From Acidimicrobiales bacterium (GTDB lineage: Bacteria; Actinomycetota; Acidimicrobiia; Acidimicrobiales; Aldehydirespiratoraceae): DNA of 64,000 bases. The stretch covers positions 2,233,442 to 2,297,441 of the forward strand of contig OY730440.1 of assembly GCA_963422655.1 (NCBI GenBank), given 5' to 3'. Of this stretch, positions 1,695 to 17,468 are shown in pieces (the stretch's first letter is position 1; the number at the start of each line of letters is the position of its first letter). Position numbers and translations under genes: made by a program. The notes under the pieces are model-generated. The model made no database searches and was not told the DNA's origin. It saw only the letters and a program-made list of their open reading frames with translations.

Positions 1695-2846
1695 TCAGTC
1701 GGACCAAACCCTGTCCGGCTTGTCCGGCCGGGCTCGGGATCCGGTCTGACCGACCCGGTAGGTCGAGACGAACGACTGCACGGTGGCGGCGAAGGGTAGG
1801 GCCAGCAGCGCCCCCACCACACCCAGCAGCGCCGCTCCGGCTATCACTGCGCCGAAGGCTACGGCCACGTGGAGTTGCATGGTGTGGGCCGTGATCCGGG
1901 GGGAGAGGATGTAGTTCTCGAACTGCTGGTATGCGAAGATCGTGATCAGCACCCACAAGCCGGTGCGGGGCTCGTGGAGTAAGGCGATGAGCACGGGCAG
2001 GGCCCCGGCGATGTAGGTGCCGATCACCGGTATGAACTGGGATATGATTCCGATCCACAGAGCCAGGGGAAGCGGGAAGGGCACGTCGAGGATCGAGAGG
2101 GCGCCCCAGTGGACAAGGGCCGAGATGACGGCCAGGATCGAGCGGGAGTAGATGTACCCGCCCGTCTTTTCCATGGCTAGGTCCCAGATCTCCAGAACCA
2201 TCTTGCGCATTTGTTCGTCGAGGAACGAACATACGACGCGACGGACCTTGGGACCTTCGGCTACCAGGTAGAAGGTGAACAGAGCGACGGTGAAGATATG
2301 GAAGACGAGGCCGATGGCGGCGGCACTGAGGTTGACCACATCGTCGGCGAACCGGCCGGCCAGGTCTTCCACGCCGCCGCCGGCCACGAACTCTTGGCGC
2401 AGTTGTTCGAACTCGATGTCGGTTCCGAAGGTGTCGTTCGTCCAAGTCTCGATGTCGTCGAGATAGCGCGGCACTTCGTCCACGAAATCGTTGATCTGGG
2501 TGGCCAGGGCCGCGCCGATGGCGGTGGAGAAGCCGGCCACGGCTATGAGGACAACCACGAATATGATCCCGGTGCCGATGCCCCGCCGAAGCCCGGCTCG
2601 TTGTAGGCGGTTGACGGCCGGCTCGATTGCGAAGGACAGGAACAGCGAGATCACCAGCACCATGATCAAGGGCCGCAGGGCGCGCAAAGCCCCGATTCCG
2701 TAGTACAGGGCCAGGCCCCCCAGCCAGAACAGCAGGATCGAGCGTTTGATCCATACCGGCACCGACCTGAACCCTGAGACACTCGACCTAGGTTCCGACT
2801 CGGAGGGGAGCCCGCTCTTGGCGTCGCAGTCGGGAGTGGACGTCAC
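1695..2846 (-). CDS. AI-2E family (PerM/UPF0118) transporter
   Basis: 383-aa polytopic membrane ORF. The tail ...[49 protein letters not shown] is characteristic of AI-2E/UPF0118. Exact start uncertain. Confidence 0.85.
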
Positions 2847-2994
2847 CGGTCGAACGCTAACACCCGAAGCGCTGGTCGGCCCTGATCTGCCGAGAGAGGT
2901 CGTGAAGGGTCGAGGTTGGTGTTCGGAGTGCTCGGTGGGCGCCCGGCGCGCCGGGTGCCTATCAGCGCTGGATCGGGGGAGTGGATTACATCAT

Positions 2995-3010
2995 TGAGTA
3001 ATATTACTCA
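2995..3010. promoter_or_regulatory. Perfect 16-bp palindrome TGAGTAATATTACTCA (operator-like, contains a TAATAT -10-like hexamer)
   Basis: Read directly from the sequence. It ends 19 nt upstream of the ATG at 3029, in an AT-rich patch of an otherwise GC-rich spacer. Confidence 0.4.
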
Positions 3011-3028
3011 GCAATGTAAGGTACTGGT

Positions 3029-4309
3029 ATGGGTTCATTCCAACGATCGCATGTCGAGACCGTCGCTCTCCGTTTGGCTGAGCCTCCGAGCAGGATCGTT
3101 GCGGTGTTCGGACCTCGTCAGACTGGTAAGACCGAAATCGTAAGGCAAACGCTCGAACGGATCCCTCAGGGCAGCTGGTACATCTCGGTCGACGAACCCG
3201 ATACCCGCCGGCTCCGTGTCTCGGTCGAATCGATTGCGGTCGAATCCGTTCTGATGCCCCAGAGGCGCGACACCGAATGGCTGGTCGAGCAATGGGAACA
3301 AGCCCGGCGTCGAGCCGATCGGGCAGGACGTGACGGACGATGGTTCGTGCTGGTTCTCGACGAGATTCAGAAGGTTCCCAACTGGTCCGATGCCGTCAAA
3401 GGTCTCTGGGATGCGGACCGGGCCAGGGAGTGCCCTCTGCACGTGGTGATACTGGGTTCAGCTCCTTTGCTCATGCAATCAGGACTGCAGGAGAGCCTCG
3501 CCGGGCGTTTCGAACCTGTTCGCGTCGCCCACTGGTCGTTCCCGGAGATGGCGTCGGCGTTTGGCTTCGACTTACCCCGATATCTCTATTTCGGTGGTTA
3601 TCCGGGCGCGGCTCATCTCGTTCGGGATCCGGATCGATGGCGTGAATACGTGCTACACGCCTTGGTCGAGCCCAACATCGAGCGGGACATCCTCGCCATG
3701 ACGCGCGTGGACAAGCCGGCCCTGCTGAAACGGCTATTCGAGCTGGGGGCCCACTACTCGGGACAGATCCTTTCGTACACCAAGATGCTGGGACAGCTCC
3801 ACGATGCCGGAAACACCACCACATTGGCCCGTTACCTCGAGCTTCTCGGGCACGCGGGATTGATCGCAGGACTTCCCAAGCATGCCGATCGGCCGCTTAT
3901 CGGCAAAGGTTCGAGCCCCAAGCTCAACGTCTTGAACACCGCGATGATGACCGCCGGATCGGGGTATTCCTTCGATGAAGCCCAAGCAGACCGTACATTC
4001 TGGGGACGAGTCGTGGAGAGCGCGGTCGGAGCCCACCTGTTGAATACCGCAACGGCGAACATCGAACTTCGCTACTGGAGGGATAATCCACACGAGGTGG
4101 ACTTCGTACTGCGACGAGGATCGGCCCTGGTCGCCATCGAGGTCAAGAGCGGACCGACAAGCCCGAGCACCAGAGGCCCGAGCACCATAGGTATGACCAA
4201 GTTTCGGAATCGGTTCGAACCTCTTCGCTCGCTGCTCGTCGGTGGAGGTGGGGTGCCTCTCGAGGAGTTCCTGAGCGTGCCCGCTGAGGATTGGTTCGAA
4301 GAGTCATGA
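3029..4309 (+). CDS. AAA+ ATPase of COG1373 type (AAA_14 + DUF4143) with PD-(D/E)xK-like C-terminus
   Basis: Motifs are Walker A GPRQTGKT, Walker B VLVLDEIQ, LAGRF and wHTH-like TTTLARYLELLGHAGLI. The C-terminal HEVDFVLRRGSALVAIEVKSG has D at nt 4100 and E-V-K at 4139-4147. Confidence 0.85.
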   Translation: MGSFQRSHVETVALRLAEPPSRIVAVFGPRQTGKTEIVRQTLERIPQGSWYISVDEPDTRRLRVSVESIAVESVLMPQRRDTEWLVEQWEQARRRADRAGRDGRWFVLVLDEIQKVPNWSDAVKGLWDADRARECPLHVVILGSAPLLMQSGLQESLAGRFEPVRVAHWSFPEMASAFGFDLPRYLYFGGYPGAAHLVRDPDRWREYVLHALVEPNIERDILAMTRVDKPALLKRLFELGAHYSGQILSYTKMLGQLHDAGNTTTLARYLELLGHAGLIAGLPKHADRPLIGKGSSPKLNVLNTAMMTAGSGYSFDEAQADRTFWGRVVESAVGAHLLNTATANIELRYWRDNPHEVDFVLRRGSALVAIEVKSGPTSPSTRGPSTIGMTKFRNRFEPLRSLLVGGGGVPLEEFLSVPAEDWFEES

Positions 4310-7300
4310 ACGGCCAAGTTCTCGTATCTCGTACATGCACCGAAATTTTTCGAGATGACACAGCTCGGGACGTGGAGCATAGTTCCCTGACCCTGAGAGA
4401 GCTTCGGGCTTTATCGGTATATGTACTGCTCGGCGACCCGGGCTCCGGTAAGAGCACGGTATTTGAAGTCGAGTGCGATGAGTTGGGAGGAGAAGCTGAG
4501 CTGATCACAGCCGGTGATTTTCTCTCGTCGGACACGAACAGTCACCCCGAATGGCGAGATCGGACGCTCTTCATAGACGGACTCGATGAGATTCGAGCCG
4601 GCCAGAGAGACGCCCGTACACCTTTCGACAAGATATGGGGCCGGCTCGACTCTCTGGGACAGCCCCGCTTTCGGATATCGTGCCGCGAAGCCGACTGGTT
4701 GGGGGACAATGATCGGAAACGTCTGGCTCGGGTTTCTCCCGACTCCGAGGTGAAGATCTTCCGGCTCGACCCGTTGACGGATTCGGACATCGAAACCCTT
4801 TTGAACCATCATCTGGATGTCGACGATGCTGGGAACGTTATGGCTCAAGCCCGAGAACTAAGTTTGGAAAGACTGCTCGCCAACCCGCTGAGTTTAAAAC
4901 TGCTGGCTATTGCTTTCGCGGGTTCTGATACGGAAGTCGTGCCGACCAACCGGCTCGAGATCTTCGAGTTGGCCTGCCGACAATTGACCTCTGAGCACAA
5001 TGAAGATCACAATGAAAAGCACAATCTCGCAGGTCAACCGTTTGACCCTGATCAGATCCTGGACGGGGCGGGACGGCTGTGTGCCTTCCAACTGATCTCG
5101 GGTACCGACGGGTTCTCCATCGACCACGGCAAAACGACTACCAATTATATCCCTTCGAACCGCTGCGATGCCAAATCGCAGGAATTGTCACGACGGGCGG
5201 TCTGCACCAGGCTGTTCGAGGGGCAGGGTGGATACCGCCGTTTCGCACCCGTTCACCGACACATTGCCGAGTTCCTGGGCGCTCGCTATCTCGCTCGGGT
5301 CATCGATGATGGGCTTACAGCCCGGCGGGTCGTCTCTCTGATCGTCGGTGAGGACGGAGGCGTCGTAACCGAGTTCCGAGGCTTGTCGGCCTGGCTCGCC
5401 GTGCATAGTCGAGAGGCTCGCAGCGAGCTCATCGAACGAGACCCGATCGGAGTCGCAATATACGGTGATATCCGAGGATTCCTGACCGAAGATAAACAGG
5501 AGCTTCTGCAGTCGCTGCACCGCGAAGTCGCCAGGCTCGACTACTCGGTGAATCCGGCTTGCTTCGGACCCATTGCCTCACCCGATATGGAATCTATACT
5601 CCAGGACATTTTGACAGAGCCCAACCGTGATAGGGATCATCAGCTCACCGCCAAATTCATATTGCAGATTCTGCAATATAGTCCTCCCTTGCCCAGCCTG
5701 TCACAGACTTTGCTCGACATCATATACGATGACAGTAGATATCCTCAGGTATATAAGCATGCAATGCATGCTTATATCCATCACATGAAGGATGGCCTAG
5801 ATAGAGACGATAGTCTCGTAGGGCTCCTGGCTGACATTCGTAATAATAAAATCTCTGATCCCGACGATGAGCTAACCGAAACCCTGTTAGCACAACTCTA
5901 CCCCCAGGTGGTACCTCCATCGAAGGTGTGGGACCATTTGGTATATGGAGGAGTCGGGAACGCTTGGAAATACCACAAGTTCTGGATAAACGATCTTTTG
6001 GAACGATCATCAGAAGATGATATAGCCGAGCTCCTCGACGAGCTGTACCAACGCTTGCCCGACCTGAAGACGGCTTTGGAAGGTCATAACTTGGAGCGTC
6101 TTCCCCTCGAGCTCTTGGACCGCGGGCTGAGCGCAGTCGGAGATGATCTGGAACCAGCCCGTCTCTACAAATGGCTCAGTGCCGGTTCCATGCGAGACTG
6201 GAAGAGGTCGGGTAACCGGCTCGGCACCGCCAAGGAATTCGTCAATCGGATACGGGCTTGGTTGGAAGCGCGTCCTCAGGTTCAAAAGGCTGTCTTTCTG
6301 GAAGGACTGACCCGATGTCAGGAAGACGATTTAGGACTGTATTCGTTCGTGGCCAACCGTTTTTTGTATGGGAGCACCCTCCCGCCCGATTTTGGGCTAT
6401 GGAGCCTGGAGCATGCCGTCAGACTCTTGAAGAGCCACCCGCAAATTTCGGAATGTCTCCTCGCGGAAGCCTTTCGCTCGTACTCTCAACAGACTCATGA
6501 TGAGGGGCTGTTTCGTTCCACTCTCATCGAGCACACTCGTGGGCACGAAGTATTGGAAAGACAACTGGCAGATATGTTGGATCAATCTAGGAGCCCAACA
6601 CTTGTAAAACGAACTCAACAAGTCGAAACGTATCAAGAAGAAGATCAGCGTAGGCAAAGAGAATGGCTCGGATATGTTCGATCGAACATTGAGGCTCTAC
6701 GAGACAACCGAGCCGCTCCGGTCATTCTGCACCAATTGGGTGAGGTATATTTCAGATCCTTACCGGGCCAGGCCGACTATGACGAGCCCACACAAAGGAT
6801 CTCGGCATTGCTCGGTGATGGTGATTTGATCGAGGCCGCGCTCCGCGGTCTTCGCGGTACGGTATCCAGAGATGATATCCCAGAATTTGAGGAAATAATA
6901 CGCCTTTATTCAGAGTCCAAGTTTTCTTGCCTGACCCTCCCATTTCTAGCTGGTATGGATGAGATATCGAGGGTTACACCAGAACAGCTCGATTGTTTTA
7001 GTGTGCGTCAGATTCGGACAGCTCTAGCTTTCTACTTCTTTTATGGTCGTAATGATAAGGCGGAATGGTATCGGAGGTGGCTCGACTCACATCCCGATCT
7101 CCTGTCCGAGGTGCTGATCAAATGGGCCAAGTCAGCGATACACGGTGGCAAGGAGTCATCGCTAGGGTTGTGCAATCTTGCCTTCAGGACCGATCATGCA
7201 CATATTGCTCGTCGAGTTAGCTTGACCCTACTCAGAACTTTTCCGGTACGTTGTAAGCTGTCACAGATCCAGGCACTGGACTGTCTACTCTGGGCCGCTT

Positions 7301-8427
7301 TGCAGCATTGTGACAAACTATCGTTCGAGAAGTTGATCCAGGAAAAACTATCCCGCAAGACTATGCATGCTTCCCAGCGCGTTCATTGGCTGGCTGCGGG
7401 TACCGTTATCGATCCCGAGGTGTATGGGCCGACCCTGGGTGACTTCGTCGGCGACCGAGATGGCCGGATCAGACAACTGGTGGAATTCTTATGTCCTCCG
7501 ATTTTACCTCTTCAAGAACTGACACGGCTCATAGTCGATAAGCTTGAGATTTCGACTCTTGAACTATTCGTCAGGCTTGTCGGGCCCTCGTTCGGGCCTG
7601 TTCTGGATAGTTTTGGCATATACGAAATACAAGAATCGCAACTGGTGGGTCGTTTGATCGAACAACTCAGTTCTTTTCCTGGTAAGGATGCGGCCCAGGC
7701 CTTGGATCATCTGGGCTCGGATTCAGCGCTGGTCTCTTGGCGTGACACGCTCATCCGAGCCCGCAGTCGCCAGCGGGTCATCCACCGTGATTTCACCTAT
7801 CACTGTCCCGACATCGAACGGATCCACCGAACGTTATCGAATCAGTCTCCTGCCAATGCCACCGATCTGGCTGCTCTCGTGTCGGAGCGACTCGAAAAGA
7901 TTGCTGTTCGGATTCGTCGAGGTAACATCAATGACTGGCGACAATACTGGAACGTCGACTCATATGACAGGCCGCTGGATTCCAGGCCCGAGAATTCTTG
8001 TAGAGATATGCTGCTCTCGGACCTGCGGCAATGCCTTCCCAAGGGTGTGGATGCTCAACCCGAAGGGCAATACGCTGGCAACAAACGGGCCGATATCAGG
8101 GTCTCGTACCAGGATTTCAACGTGCCGGTAGAAATCAAGAAGAGCAATCATCGAGACCTCCGGAGCGCGCTACGGTGTCAGTTGATCAAGAAGTATACGA
8201 GCGATCCGGCCACAGGCGGATACGGGATCTACCTGGTGTTCTGGTTTGGTAACAATTCGCAGCCGACTCCCCACAACGATTATCCAGCCACCGCCTCAGA
8301 GCTGCGAGAGCAGCTAGAAGCTGAGCTGACCGCAGAAGAGGCACGCAAGATCTCGGTTCGTGTAATCGATGTGGAAGCCCCATCACAATCGGCGCCAACC
8401 TCGAAGAGCGCGTGCTGCAGGTTGTGA
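4306..8427 (+). CDS. Large NACHT/STAND-type P-loop NTPase with helical sensor region and C-terminal PD-(D/E)xK-like module
   Basis: The ATG at 4306 forms an ATGA overlap with the upstream stop; the ORF track opens at 4291. N-terminal motifs are GDPGSGKST (4432-4458), TLFIDGLDE (4564-4590), ANPLSLKLLA and FAPVHRHIAEFLGARYLA. The C-terminal RADIRVSYQDFNVPVEIKKS has D at 8092 and E-I-K at 8131-8139. Confidence 0.85.
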   Translation: MNGQVLVSRTCTEIFRDDTARDVEHSSLTLRELRALSVYVLLGDPGSGKSTVFEVECDELGGEAELITAGDFLSSDTNSHPEWRDRTLFIDGLDEIRAGQRDARTPFDKIWGRLDSLGQPRFRISCREADWLGDNDRKRLARVSPDSEVKIFRLDPLTDSDIETLLNHHLDVDDAGNVMAQARELSLERLLANPLSLKLLAIAFAGSDTEVVPTNRLEIFELACRQLTSEHNEDHNEKHNLAGQPFDPDQILDGAGRLCAFQLISGTDGFSIDHGKTTTNYIPSNRCDAKSQELSRRAVCTRLFEGQGGYRRFAPVHRHIAEFLGARYLARVIDDGLTARRVVSLIVGEDGGVVTEFRGLSAWLAVHSREARSELIERDPIGVAIYGDIRGFLTEDKQELLQSLHREVARLDYSVNPACFGPIASPDMESILQDILTEPNRDRDHQLTAKFILQILQYSPPLPSLSQTLLDIIYDDSRYPQVYKHAMHAYIHHMKDGLDRDDSLVGLLADIRNNKISDPDDELTETLLAQLYPQVVPPSKVWDHLVYGGVGNAWKYHKFWINDLLERSSEDDIAELLDELYQRLPDLKTALEGHNLERLPLELLDRGLSAVGDDLEPARLYKWLSAGSMRDWKRSGNRLGTAKEFVNRIRAWLEARPQVQKAVFLEGLTRCQEDDLGLYSFVANRFLYGSTLPPDFGLWSLEHAVRLLKSHPQISECLLAEAFRSYSQQTHDEGLFRSTLIEHTRGHEVLERQLADMLDQSRSPTLVKRTQQVETYQEEDQRRQREWLGYVRSNIEALRDNRAAPVILHQLGEVYFRSLPGQADYDEPTQRISALLGDGDLIEAALRGLRGTVSRDDIPEFEEIIRLYSESKFSCLTLPFLAGMDEISRVTPEQLDCFSVRQIRTALAFYFFYGRNDKAEWYRRWLDSHPDLLSEVLIKWAKSAIHGGKESSLGLCNLAFRTDHAHIARRVSLTLLRTFPVRCKLSQIQALDCLLWAALQHCDKLSFEKLIQEKLSRKTMHASQRVHWLAAGTVIDPEVYGPTLGDFVGDRDGRIRQLVEFLCPPILPLQELTRLIVDKLEISTLELFVRLVGPSFGPVLDSFGIYEIQESQLVGRLIEQLSSFPGKDAAQALDHLGSDSALVSWRDTLIRARSRQRVIHRDFTYHCPDIERIHRTLSNQSPANATDLAALVSERLEKIAVRIRRGNINDWRQYWNVDSYDRPLDSRPENSCRDMLLSDLRQCLPKGVDAQPEGQYAGNKRADIRVSYQDFNVPVEIKKSNHRDLRSALRCQLIKKYTSDPATGGYGIYLVFWFGNNSQPTPHNDYPATASELREQLEAELTAEEARKISVRVIDVEAPSQSAPTSKSACCRL

Positions 8428-8720
8428 TGGTTGCCGCGGTTGTCGGTGCGCAGCTCAGCGGAACGGGCGTTCGGGCTCAGACTGTCGAAGCCGGGTAGCT
8501 CTTCTCGTGGTGCCGTCCTCGACTTGGCGGGCAGGTTGGACTCGACCCAGACCTGAGCTACAGTACTCATGGCTACATTCGATGTCCGTGAAGGCCACCA
8601 GGAACCGCACGGCCCAACTGAGACTCACTCCGCCGGGCCTGCCCGAGCGGAGTGTTCGCGTGAGTGGACGCTCACGTTGGAACATCAGGTTCGCAAATTC
8701 AGGATCGACAAGGACGAGAC

Positions 8721-9362
8721 ATGGCCACCAAGGCGATCGTGGGTACCAAGATCGGTATGACCCAGATCTGGGACGACGACAACCGAGTCGTTCCTGTCAC
8801 AGTGCTTTCGGTCTTGCCGTGTCGGGTCGTTCAGATCAAGACACCCGGCAACGATGGCTACAGCGCCATCCAGGTGACCTTCGGGAACCAGGATCCGGCT
8901 CGGCTCAATCGACCTGAGGCCGGTCACTTCGCCAAGGTCGGAGTCGAACCGGGCCGCAAGATTCTCGAGCTTCGTCTCGACGACGTGAGCGACTACTCGA
9001 TCGGTCAGCAGATCGGCGCCGATCGGCTGACTTCGGGCGAAAGGGTCGATGTGACCGCGGTGTCCAAGGGCCGCGGGTTCACCGGCGTCATGAAACGTCA
9101 CGGCTTCAAGGGCCAGCCCGCCGGTCACGGCGCCCACAAGGTCCACCGCAAGCCCGGCGCGATCGGCCAGTGCGCCACCCCTTCCCGTGTCTTCAAAGGT
9201 AAGAAGCTCCCGGGCCGCTCCGGTGCGGTCAAGGTCACGACGCTCAATCTCGAGGTCGTCCGGGCCGACAGCAAGGCCGAAGTGGTGCTGGTCAGAGGAT
9301 CCGTCCCCGGACCGGCCGGTGGGACCGTCGTCGTCCGCGACGCGGTGAAAGCTCCGAGGTAG
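8721..9362 (+). CDS. rplC: 50S ribosomal protein L3
   Basis: ATG at 8721 inside ORF 8664..9362. The N-terminus is MATKAIVGTKIGMTQIWD... Confidence 0.96.
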   Translation: MATKAIVGTKIGMTQIWDDDNRVVPVTVLSVLPCRVVQIKTPGNDGYSAIQVTFGNQDPARLNRPEAGHFAKVGVEPGRKILELRLDDVSDYSIGQQIGADRLTSGERVDVTAVSKGRGFTGVMKRHGFKGQPAGHGAHKVHRKPGAIGQCATPSRVFKGKKLPGRSGAVKVTTLNLEVVRADSKAEVVLVRGSVPGPAGGTVVVRDAVKAPR

Positions 9363-17289: not shown

Positions 17290-17468
17290 TGAAACTGGTC
17301 GTCACGCAGATCCGCTCGGCCACGGGGGCCAAGCCCAAGCAGCGCGGTACGCTGCGGGCACTGGGCCTGGGCCGTATCGGCAAGCAGAATAGGTTGCCTG
17401 ACCGGCCCGAGATACGGGGCATGATCGGGCGGGTTCCCCATCTCGTCCGGGTCGAGGAGGTCGATTGA
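17289..17468 (+). CDS. rpmD: 50S ribosomal protein L30
   Basis: [30 protein letters not shown] at 17289 overlaps the rpsE stop; the ORF track opens at GTG 17286. Confidence 0.93.
   Translation: MKLVVTQIRSATGAKPKQRGTLRALGLGRIGKQNRLPDRPEIRGMIGRVPHLVRVEEVD

Follow-up and report, generated by a model that had tools for sequence, protein, structure and literature searches.

A PDC-S01 ATPase gene coupled to an EruA-like NACHT gene in a ribosomal-protein operon of an Acidimicrobiales bacterium: a candidate anti-phage cassette with a putative palindromic promoter

In antiphage proteins of the Avs and bNACHT types, a STAND (signal transduction ATPase with numerous domains) NTPase is combined with a large sensor, made of repeats or helices, and with a nuclease effector that is usually N-terminal. 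NCBIfam holds two further families that bear on the present work, the "NACHT domain-containing antiphage protein EruA" (NF058535) and HyoA (NF058534). Among single-gene candidates, PADLOC has filed PDC-S01, the fourth commonest defence candidate in prokaryotes with ~39,000 occurrences (PMC12988326); such PDCs are defined by being embedded in other systems (bioRxiv 10.1101/2024.09.26.614923). Here, we analyze a 64,000-nucleotide stretch of an Acidimicrobiales genome (contig OY730440.1, positions 2,233,442 to 2,297,441; hereafter the window), in which a PDC-S01 gene (ORF A) is followed by, and overlaps, a gene with the architecture of EruA (ORF B). A preliminary description of this DNA had presented the two genes as a system without a name. 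Both families are already catalogued, that of B in NCBIfam as EruA and that of A in PADLOC as PDC-S01, so this is not a system of a wholly new kind. As far as the searchable literature shows, three things nevertheless appear to be new: the recurrent coupling of PDC-S01 and EruA-type genes in both gene orders, an insert specific to the paired A proteins, and a near-universal palindromic promoter-operator of this PDC-S01 subfamily. We favor, with a probability of about 0.6, the reading that the locus is a portable two-gene anti-phage cassette repressed by A, in which the PDC-S01 ATPase-nuclease A would act as partner or regulator of B, an EruA-family protein resembling NOD-like receptors (NLRs).

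The cassette itself consists of the following elements:

3029-4309, plus strand: ORF A, 426 aa
4306-8427, plus strand: ORF B, 1373 aa counted from its ATG
4306-4309, plus strand: ATGA overlap, read directly, comprising the stop codon of A and the start codon of B

The two co-directional frames, their overlap, and every motif quoted in the preliminary description were found where it had placed them, including the three proposed catalytic positions at nt 8092, 8131, and 8137. Homologues show that both frames are genuine genes: more than 3,270 are known for ORF B, those among the matches listed covering 96-100% of its length, and the homologues of ORF A are 50-72% identical to it. The list of open reading frames also offers an upstream TTG start for ORF B at 4291; the homologue alignments begin at the ATG. 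The ATGA overlap implies translational coupling from A to B.

To establish how often the two genes travel together, we compared the 80 genome loci whose B relatives are most similar to ORF B (B identity 39-52%); their record titles place them in at least 12 phyla. In 74 of the 80, the gene immediately 5' of B is an A homologue with 53-72% identity to ORF A. Of the six others, one (L076) is truncated on the 5' side and five, all from Dehalococcoidia, carry B alone, so the synteny suggested as a check on the pair holds at 74 of 79 informative loci. A 4-nt stop/start overlap joins the genes in 75 of 81 paired loci, a set that includes the window and seven metagenome loci (ATGA in 65, GTGA in nine, TTGA in one), and the other paired loci have a gap of a few bases. 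No third conserved gene was found beside the pair among the genome loci compared. At two of the Dehalococcoidia loci that lack A, the position immediately 5' of B is taken by an intact or fragmented ORF resembling a serine recombinase (L035 7260-7826 and L036 7300-7827), which suggests that A was replaced or lost there by recombination.

A second, reversed form of the pairing was found among bona fide EruA proteins. Two plasmid homologues score above the EruA cutoff, that of Bradyrhizobium CW1 (1190 bits), which has no DUF4143 neighbor, and that of Paracoccus (1321 bits), which has one directly downstream. In Rhodobacterales, a DUF4143 protein of 406-407 aa is encoded 2-5 nt after EruA in at least two genomic contexts. 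This partner matches a different PDC-S01 sub-model (PDLC04790, 1e-46) and is ~25% identical to ORF A; its Walker A (ALPRAGRT) and Walker B (VDAID) motifs are degenerate and its E-x-D...E-x-K motif is intact (L172 9008-10231; L083 10008-11129), and it may be a pseudo-ATPase. Because EruA precedes its partner in these operons, the association of EruA-type NLRs with PDC-S01-type proteins exists in either gene order, with different PDC-S01 subfamilies.

The reverse test began from A. It used 80 metagenome loci retrieved with A (50-67% identical), 58 of which were informative; B was present in seven, and in the other 51 A stood alone, with nothing conserved 3' of it. On proteobacterial plasmids (Vibrio, Pantoea, Bradyrhizobium, Agrobacterium, and Ralstonia), distant homologues of B mostly stand alone as well, and the DNA of the Pantoea homologue has no counterpart in complete Escherichia coli genomes. 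Such independence is what one would expect of two single-gene systems, PDC-S01 and an EruA-like NLR, that merely share a transcript, with A donating a portable promoter and no cooperation between the products. That B is found alone in the five Dehalococcoidia loci and on plasmids and A in 51 of 58 metagenome loci speaks for this account, as do the filing of PDC-S01 as a single-gene candidate (PMC12988326) and the finding that the Rhodobacterales DUF4143 protein matched no partner model in NCBIfam. We nonetheless think it unlikely, since the 4-nt overlap persists across at least 12 phyla despite the divergence of B, and a second, reversed association involves another PDC-S01 subfamily whose ATPase motifs are degenerate but whose nuclease motif is kept. 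Moreover, an insert of ~20 aa in A (residues 57-78 in the window) tracks the pairing, being present in 82 of 82 paired loci versus 3 of 51 unpaired informative loci; this pattern fits co-adaptation of A with B.

The insert and the other features of ORF A are located as follows:

3110-3133, plus strand: Walker A, GPRQTGKT, residues 28-35; in an alignment of relatives there is no variation at G33 and T35 and almost none at K34
3197-3262, plus strand: insert, residues 57-78, between Walker A and Walker B, peculiar to A proteins paired with B
3347-3370, plus strand: Walker B, VLVLDEIQ, residues 107-114, from the alignment of relatives
3767-3874, plus strand: probable DNA-binding winged helix, residues 247-282, from a sequence pattern inside DUF4143
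4094-4153, plus strand: PD-(D/E)xK core, E356-x-D358...E371-x-K373, invariant in the alignment of relatives

The assignment of ORF A to the AAA_14 plus DUF4143 architecture (COG1373), made in the preliminary description, is borne out by Pfam (2e-21 and 3.3e-25, respectively). By profile comparison, ORF A is a full-length PDC-S01 member: residues 4-423 match positions 2 to 394/395 of the PADLOC model PDLC04791 at 9.9e-158, and six more PDC-S01 sub-models also match. It thus has the same ATPase, DUF4143, and PD-(D/E)xK architecture as the catalogued candidate, but differs from it in being coupled to an NLR-like gene and in carrying the insert specific to paired proteins. The DUF4143/COG1373 group has been placed in the PD-(D/E)xK superfamily (PMC3424549). 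In ORF A, the core comprises EVDFVL (residues 356-361) and AIEVKSG (residues 369-375), and its invariance extends to the distant Rhodobacterales partner; weak matches to YraN/UPF0102 cover residues 319-392. The segment at 247-282 is probably DNA-binding, and the corresponding segment of the Rhodobacterales partner gives a weak match to the GntR helix-turn-helix. Other matches were a weak one to TniB (E = 0.074) and, in PHROGs, a single weak one to a phage "DNA transposition protein" family (1.2e-4). The sequence profile of ORF A found no informative solved relative in the PDB.

Upstream of ORF A lies a palindrome that overlaps a promoter-like site:

2986-3022, plus strand: palindromic promoter/operator candidate, read directly and conserved upstream of A genes
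2986-3003 and 3002-3019: imperfect 18-nt arms, read directly
2994-3011, plus strand: palindrome core, TTGAGTAATATTACTCAG, one match in the window versus 0 expected from shuffled sequence
2994-2999, plus strand: -35-like hexamer, TTGAGT, followed by a 17-nt spacer
3017-3022, plus strand: -10-like hexamer, TAAGGT, ending 6 nt before the ATG

This element has the form TTGAGTAA-NN-TTACTCAA. When we searched the 100 nt upstream of A genes for TGAGTAA-N(1-4)-TTACTCA, allowing up to three mismatches, it was found before 140 of the 146 genes that had enough upstream sequence, with or without B. Of these 140 palindromes, 131 have a 2-nt spacer, and among 102 loci scored for distance, 62 have the center 26-27 nt ahead of the start codon. 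The arms are often 17-22 nt long (ATTACGCTATTGAGTAA..TTACTCAATAGCGTAAT), and stand-alone A loci often have a third TGAGTAA half-site. The element was not found upstream of genes for B alone nor, in its TGAGTAA form, in the Rhodobacterales operon. Thus, the palindrome to which the preliminary description drew attention is real, with 0 expected by chance, but it belongs to gene A and not to the pair. Its left inner arm is the -35 hexamer (TTGAGT or TTGACT), with TAAnnT 17 nt further on, ending ~6 nt before the ATG; an operator would therefore overlap the promoter core. No Shine-Dalgarno sequence is visible before A in the loci compared. The position of the -10-like site, 6 nt before the ATG in the window, suggests that A is probably translated from a leaderless mRNA. 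Because the palindrome has been kept in many phyla and no gene other than A is shared by all palindrome loci, A would be the only cassette-encoded candidate for a protein that binds it, presumably through the probable winged helix. The palindrome may alternatively act as a DNA or RNA hairpin. Extra copies were also seen: orphan palindromes without an A gene behind them in two Rhodothermales loci (L028 ~6135-6152 and L030 ~17372-17389), and tandem palindromes 82-83 bp apart upstream of A in Nitrospirales (L068 6613-6630 and 6695-6712; L071 6612-6629 and 6695-6712). Such copies could be left over from lost cassettes or serve as additional operators.

ORF B is organized as follows:

4306-5500, plus strand: NACHT NTPase module, ~residues 1-400, from motifs, invariance, and a structure model
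4432-4458, plus strand: Walker A, GDPGSGKST, residues 43-51; G43, G46, G48, and K49 invariant in an alignment of 29 sequences
4564-4590, plus strand: Walker B, TLFIDGLDE, residues 87-95; D91-E95 invariant in the same alignment
4669-4698, plus strand: sensor-1-like sequence motif, FRISCREADW, with SCR invariant
4879-4908, plus strand: NPLSL sequence motif, within ANPLSLKLLA, residues 192-201
5242-5295, plus strand: winged-helix sequence motif, FAPVHRHIAEFLGARYLA, residues 313-330
5501-7990, plus strand: helical region, ~residues 400-1228, all-helical in the model up to residue 700
6673-6753, plus strand: motif resembling ribosome recycling factor (RRF), YVRSNIEALRDNRAAPVILHQLGEVYF, residues 790-816, from the B-family profile compared with PDB sequences
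7990-8373, plus strand: PD-(D/E)xK-like module, ~residues 1229-1356, from invariant residues, a model, and fold matches

The EruA model NF058535 aligns with residues 26-1356 of ORF B in one collinear stretch covering positions 13-1317 of 1318. The score, 857.5 bits, falls below the curated cutoff of 1000; elsewhere, besides the two plasmid homologues above it, the model gives 952 bits for the homologue P0005. Because it is below the equivalog cutoff, we do not file ORF B as EruA proper; by profile and domain order it is a divergent subfamily with EruA architecture. The likeness is extensive, comprising an end-to-end match, a length of ~1,330-1,370 aa, the order of P-loop-first NACHT module, long helical region, and C-terminal module, and, in at least one bona fide EruA clade (Rhodobacterales), a neighbor of PDC-S01 type. 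Apart from the score, ORF B differs in being only ~26% identical to the Paracoccus EruA, and the locus differs in that the partner gene comes first, with a 4-nt overlap, a different PDC-S01 sub-model, and a palindromic promoter; furthermore, some bona fide EruA genes, as in Bradyrhizobium, have no PDC-S01 partner. A distant relation to HyoA is also detectable (157 bits over residues 137-1040), but it is far under the cutoff of 1200 and leaves the N- and C-terminus of ORF B outside the match. Homologues of ORF B carry a precomputed Pfam hit to DUF8371 (PF28130), while our local Pfam copy gave no significant match for ORF B (NPHP3_N at E = 0.065 only). The Pfam NACHT model PF05729 did not match ORF B, and even the Paracoccus EruA reaches just 19.9 bits, below the cutoff of 26.7. 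Neither PHROGs nor any PADLOC model of known or candidate systems matched ORF B.

The NACHT assignment rests on motifs and on structure. Koonin and Aravind are said to have given Walker A GxxxxGK[ST] and Walker B hhhhDGhDE as NACHT-defining motifs in 2000, and the histidine motif of the NACHT winged helix has the form FxHxxhxEFhAA. In ORF B this last motif reads F313-APVHRHIAEFLGARYLA, with H317, R318, H319, E322, F323, and L324 invariant across the 29 sequences. An AlphaFold model of residues 1-700 (mca41c035f7a5) had a predicted local distance difference test score (pLDDT) of 75.6. When it was searched with Foldseek, all 14 matches at E <= 1e-3 were of NLR type, namely NLRC4, NAIP/NLRC4, and the mouse oocyte complex chains 8h93_A and 9sfp, which we take to be NLRP5, each with a probability of 1.00; the NLRC4 structure 4kxf matched at E = 3.4e-6. 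The model thus supports the earlier view of ORF B as a P-loop-first, NACHT-type STAND protein, with a predicted N-terminus like that of NLRC4 and NAIP. ORF B shares the overall plan of Avs and bNACHT proteins, but its P-loop begins at residue 43, there is no N-terminal effector, and the nuclease-like module is C-terminal; its best fold matches are the animal proteins NLRC4 and NAIP and not Avs, Avs4 ranking 23rd at E = 0.02.

The helical region of ~800 aa is less conserved than both ends of the protein and is presumed, by analogy with Avs and NLR proteins, to be the sensor. Compared with the PDB, the B-family profile found no informative solved relative of ORF B. Its sole matches were ribosome recycling factors (chloroplast RRF 5mlc_9 at E = 1.7e-5, 6eri, 1eh1, and 1is1), which align through the RRF N-terminal helix and the beginning of domain II. 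Within this stretch R792, N794, N801, L808, and Y815 are invariant or nearly so in the B family, and the likeness could be due to chance or reflect a genuine RRF-like element.

At the C-terminus, E1253, D1263, E1276, and K1278 are invariant in the 29 sequences, the last three corresponding to nt 8092, 8131, and 8137. They belong to the RADIRVSYQDFNVPVEIKKS stretch within residues 1252-1280, which is followed by GYGIYLVFWFG at 1305-1315. A model of residues 1130-1373 (m8cbc4a1043b0; pLDDT 74.9) has an alpha-beta-beta-beta-alpha-beta core, which DSSP assigns, in fragment numbering, to H100-114, E120-123, E135-139, E142-150, H156-170, and E178-184. Fragment residue D134 (D1263) is at the start of beta-2, and E147 and K149 (E1276 and K1278) are in beta-3. 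The top fold matches of this model are nearly all PD-(D/E)xK enzymes: Can1, Can2, Nt.BspD6I, PaqCI, SfsA, EndoMS, Bax1, Mus81, and Hjc. None reaches E <= 1e-3; Can1 is best (E = 6e-3, probability 0.95), and Hjc aligns with a template modeling (TM) score of 0.43 and a root-mean-square deviation of 4.0. Thus, a PD-(D/E)xK-like fold, as first proposed, is supported by the modeled topology and the invariant catalytic residues and not by any single match. Clustering at 50% identity gives 2,778 clusters with this module; among the best 150 of these it is always C-terminal, in proteins of ~1,340-1,470 aa or apparent fragments thereof. The D-x12-E-x-K pattern had been said to mirror the C-terminus of ORF A. 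The generic core is indeed common to both modules and is their only common ground; a profile-profile comparison with hhalign is not significant (probability 0.8%), and we reject the idea that the nuclease of ORF B is a duplicate of that of ORF A.

The surroundings of the cassette bear on how it arrived. GC content over 4-8 kb is 0.52-0.55, the minimum of the window, versus 0.59-0.69 in the remainder. On the 5' side are tuf, rpsJ, and a minus-strand AI-2E transporter gene, and on the 3' side rplC, rplD, rplW, rplB, rpsS, and further genes of the canonical S10 ribosomal-protein operon, which is interrupted at the cassette. The low GC and the placement within a housekeeping operon noted previously are therefore correct; rpsJ (1323-1643) and rplC (8721-9362) are parted by the transporter gene (1695-2846, minus strand) together with the cassette. 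A relative with a 95%-identical B (ENA ERZ21742368, contig_32, 153 kb) has the same layout and the same insertion. An empty, pre-insertion site was not found; exact-protein look-ups with rpsJ and rplC returned only this relative. The window contains no tRNA, so the cassette is not a tRNA-targeted island, and no Rfam family matched within 2600-8800. Because no terminator-like site was seen after B in a scan of the window, read-through is possible, and rplC and the following genes may be transcribed either from the cassette promoter or from a promoter within 8428-8720. Within ORF B itself, a perfect 13-nt inverted repeat at 5751-5777 (ATATAAGCATGCA / TGCATGCTTATAT, 1 nt between the arms) sits in the most AT-rich part of the gene, beside promoter-like hexamers at 5573-5640 and 5704-5675.

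Across loci, homology starts ~50 nt before the ATG of A and stops at the stop codon of B. The preliminary description proposed horizontal acquisition, and the GC dip together with the spread over at least 12 phyla fits it. Mobility of this kind could also mean that A is a selfish or regulatory module that inserts into operons with B as cargo, and that its main effect is its own maintenance or spread, by addiction or homing, and not defense. The palindrome accompanies A into very different hosts and neighborhoods, including housekeeping operons (rpsJ/rplC here), palindromes without A exist, PDCs are by definition embedded inside other systems, and the weak matches of ORF A to TniB and to the phage transposition family point the same way, as does the failure of PDC-S01 to protect alone in one test (see below). 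We judge this account distinctly improbable: no flanking direct or inverted repeats define an element at the window locus, no conserved motif follows B among the loci compared, no integrase or transposase travels with the cassette as a conserved companion, no B relative was found on viral contigs, and the B family is curated as antiphage.

Defense context was the other neighborhood check that had been suggested, and it gave a divided answer. Plasmid neighbors of distant B homologues include Ppl, Abi, TIR, SIR2, RES, AbiE, and toxin-antitoxin genes as well as integrases. Around the cassette itself, a sample of 140 flanking ORFs, taken without a control set, contained defense genes (AbiEi, restriction endonuclease/methyltransferase, IetA, PLD-helicase, PDC-S11, another PDC-S01, and a reverse transcriptase), insertion-sequence genes (IstB and a Mutator-family transposase), and many housekeeping genes (such as Pup ligase, phosphofructokinase, and SAICAR synthetase). 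In six genome loci a gene of ~1,360 aa starting MPGQLFTHYFLTDG lies just downstream of the cassette (e.g., L003 13404-17423), and a gene with a similar N-terminus follows a stand-alone A gene (L099 2042-2716). We take this N-terminus to resemble that of a type IIG or BREX-type methyltransferase-restriction enzyme; its position beside the cassette or A is consistent with the origin of PDC candidates as genes embedded in restriction-modification-like systems.

Habitat offers a further reading, namely that the genes form an NLR-like signaling pair for symbiont-host or microbe-microbe interaction in sponge microbiomes and have no part in phage defense. Many of the 80 closest loci come from metagenome-assembled genomes titled Entotheonella, Poriferisocius, Porisulfidus, and Latescibacterota, names that presumably denote sponge symbionts. 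However, these loci are by construction the most similar to a query probably from such a habitat, so the enrichment stems from sampling; other metagenomes contain paired loci too, distant homologues lie in defense islands of soil and plant bacteria, and an intracellular nuclease effector suits immunity better. We regard this reading as very improbable indeed.

Several observations weigh against an anti-phage cassette controlled by A. Both genes are frequent alone, and the partnership is not obligatory. The insert in paired A proteins could be a mere marker of one clade. ORF B scores below the curated EruA cutoff, the fold matches of its C-terminus are individually weak, and the -10 of the window (TAAGGT) is too weak for a consensus promoter scan. 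The cassette's own neighborhoods are mixed, with many housekeeping genes. Literature searches on EruA and HyoA with phage, NACHT, or defense returned nothing relevant, and the source of the "antiphage" name was not found. Lastly, when candidates were tested in E. coli against T4, T5, or T7, a stand-alone representative of PDC-S01 was not one of those that gave protection (bioRxiv 10.1101/2024.09.26.614923); this negative result is consistent with a family that needs a partner or a particular host.

We nevertheless favor the anti-phage cassette. We infer an anti-phage role because B is homologous to a family named antiphage by NCBI curators and because of the context of its distant homologues; nuclease activity, binding of A to the operator, a leaderless transcript, and interaction of A with B are proposed as further parts of the scheme. 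The cassette would be built of two modules, each of which also exists alone, and would be horizontally mobile. A would bring its own promoter overlapped by a palindromic operator, and the leaderless transcript would permit expression in many phyla. Most likely, A binds this operator and represses the operon. By analogy with Avs and bNACHT, the helical region of B would recognize a phage-derived cue, upon which its NACHT module would oligomerize in an ATP-dependent manner; the C-terminal PD-(D/E)xK domains, thus clustered, would cut DNA and halt the infection, perhaps with loss of the cell. As the partner of B, A could be a regulator or guard, or a second nuclease arm. A bolder and more doubtful version, which we offer tentatively, is that PDC-S01 is in general a sequence-specific DNA-binding ATPase-nuclease seated on its own operator, that in this cassette it serves as regulator or guard of the NLR executioner B, and that this two-tier sensor/executor pair was assembled at least twice, once per gene order. 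If true, this would account for the lack of protection by PDC-S01 alone, and the function of the family would be directly testable through the operator.

PDC-S01 is an abundant candidate, and the present work offers three handles on it: its coupling to an NLR-like nuclease, a near-universal palindromic operator candidate, and a partner-specific insert. Among bacterial NLRs, it represents a further, well-populated architecture in which the effector is C-terminal and an ATPase is accessory. The cassette also exemplifies a defense unit expressible in many phyla, apparently by means of a leaderless transcript and translational coupling, and one that is able to settle within a ribosomal-protein operon.

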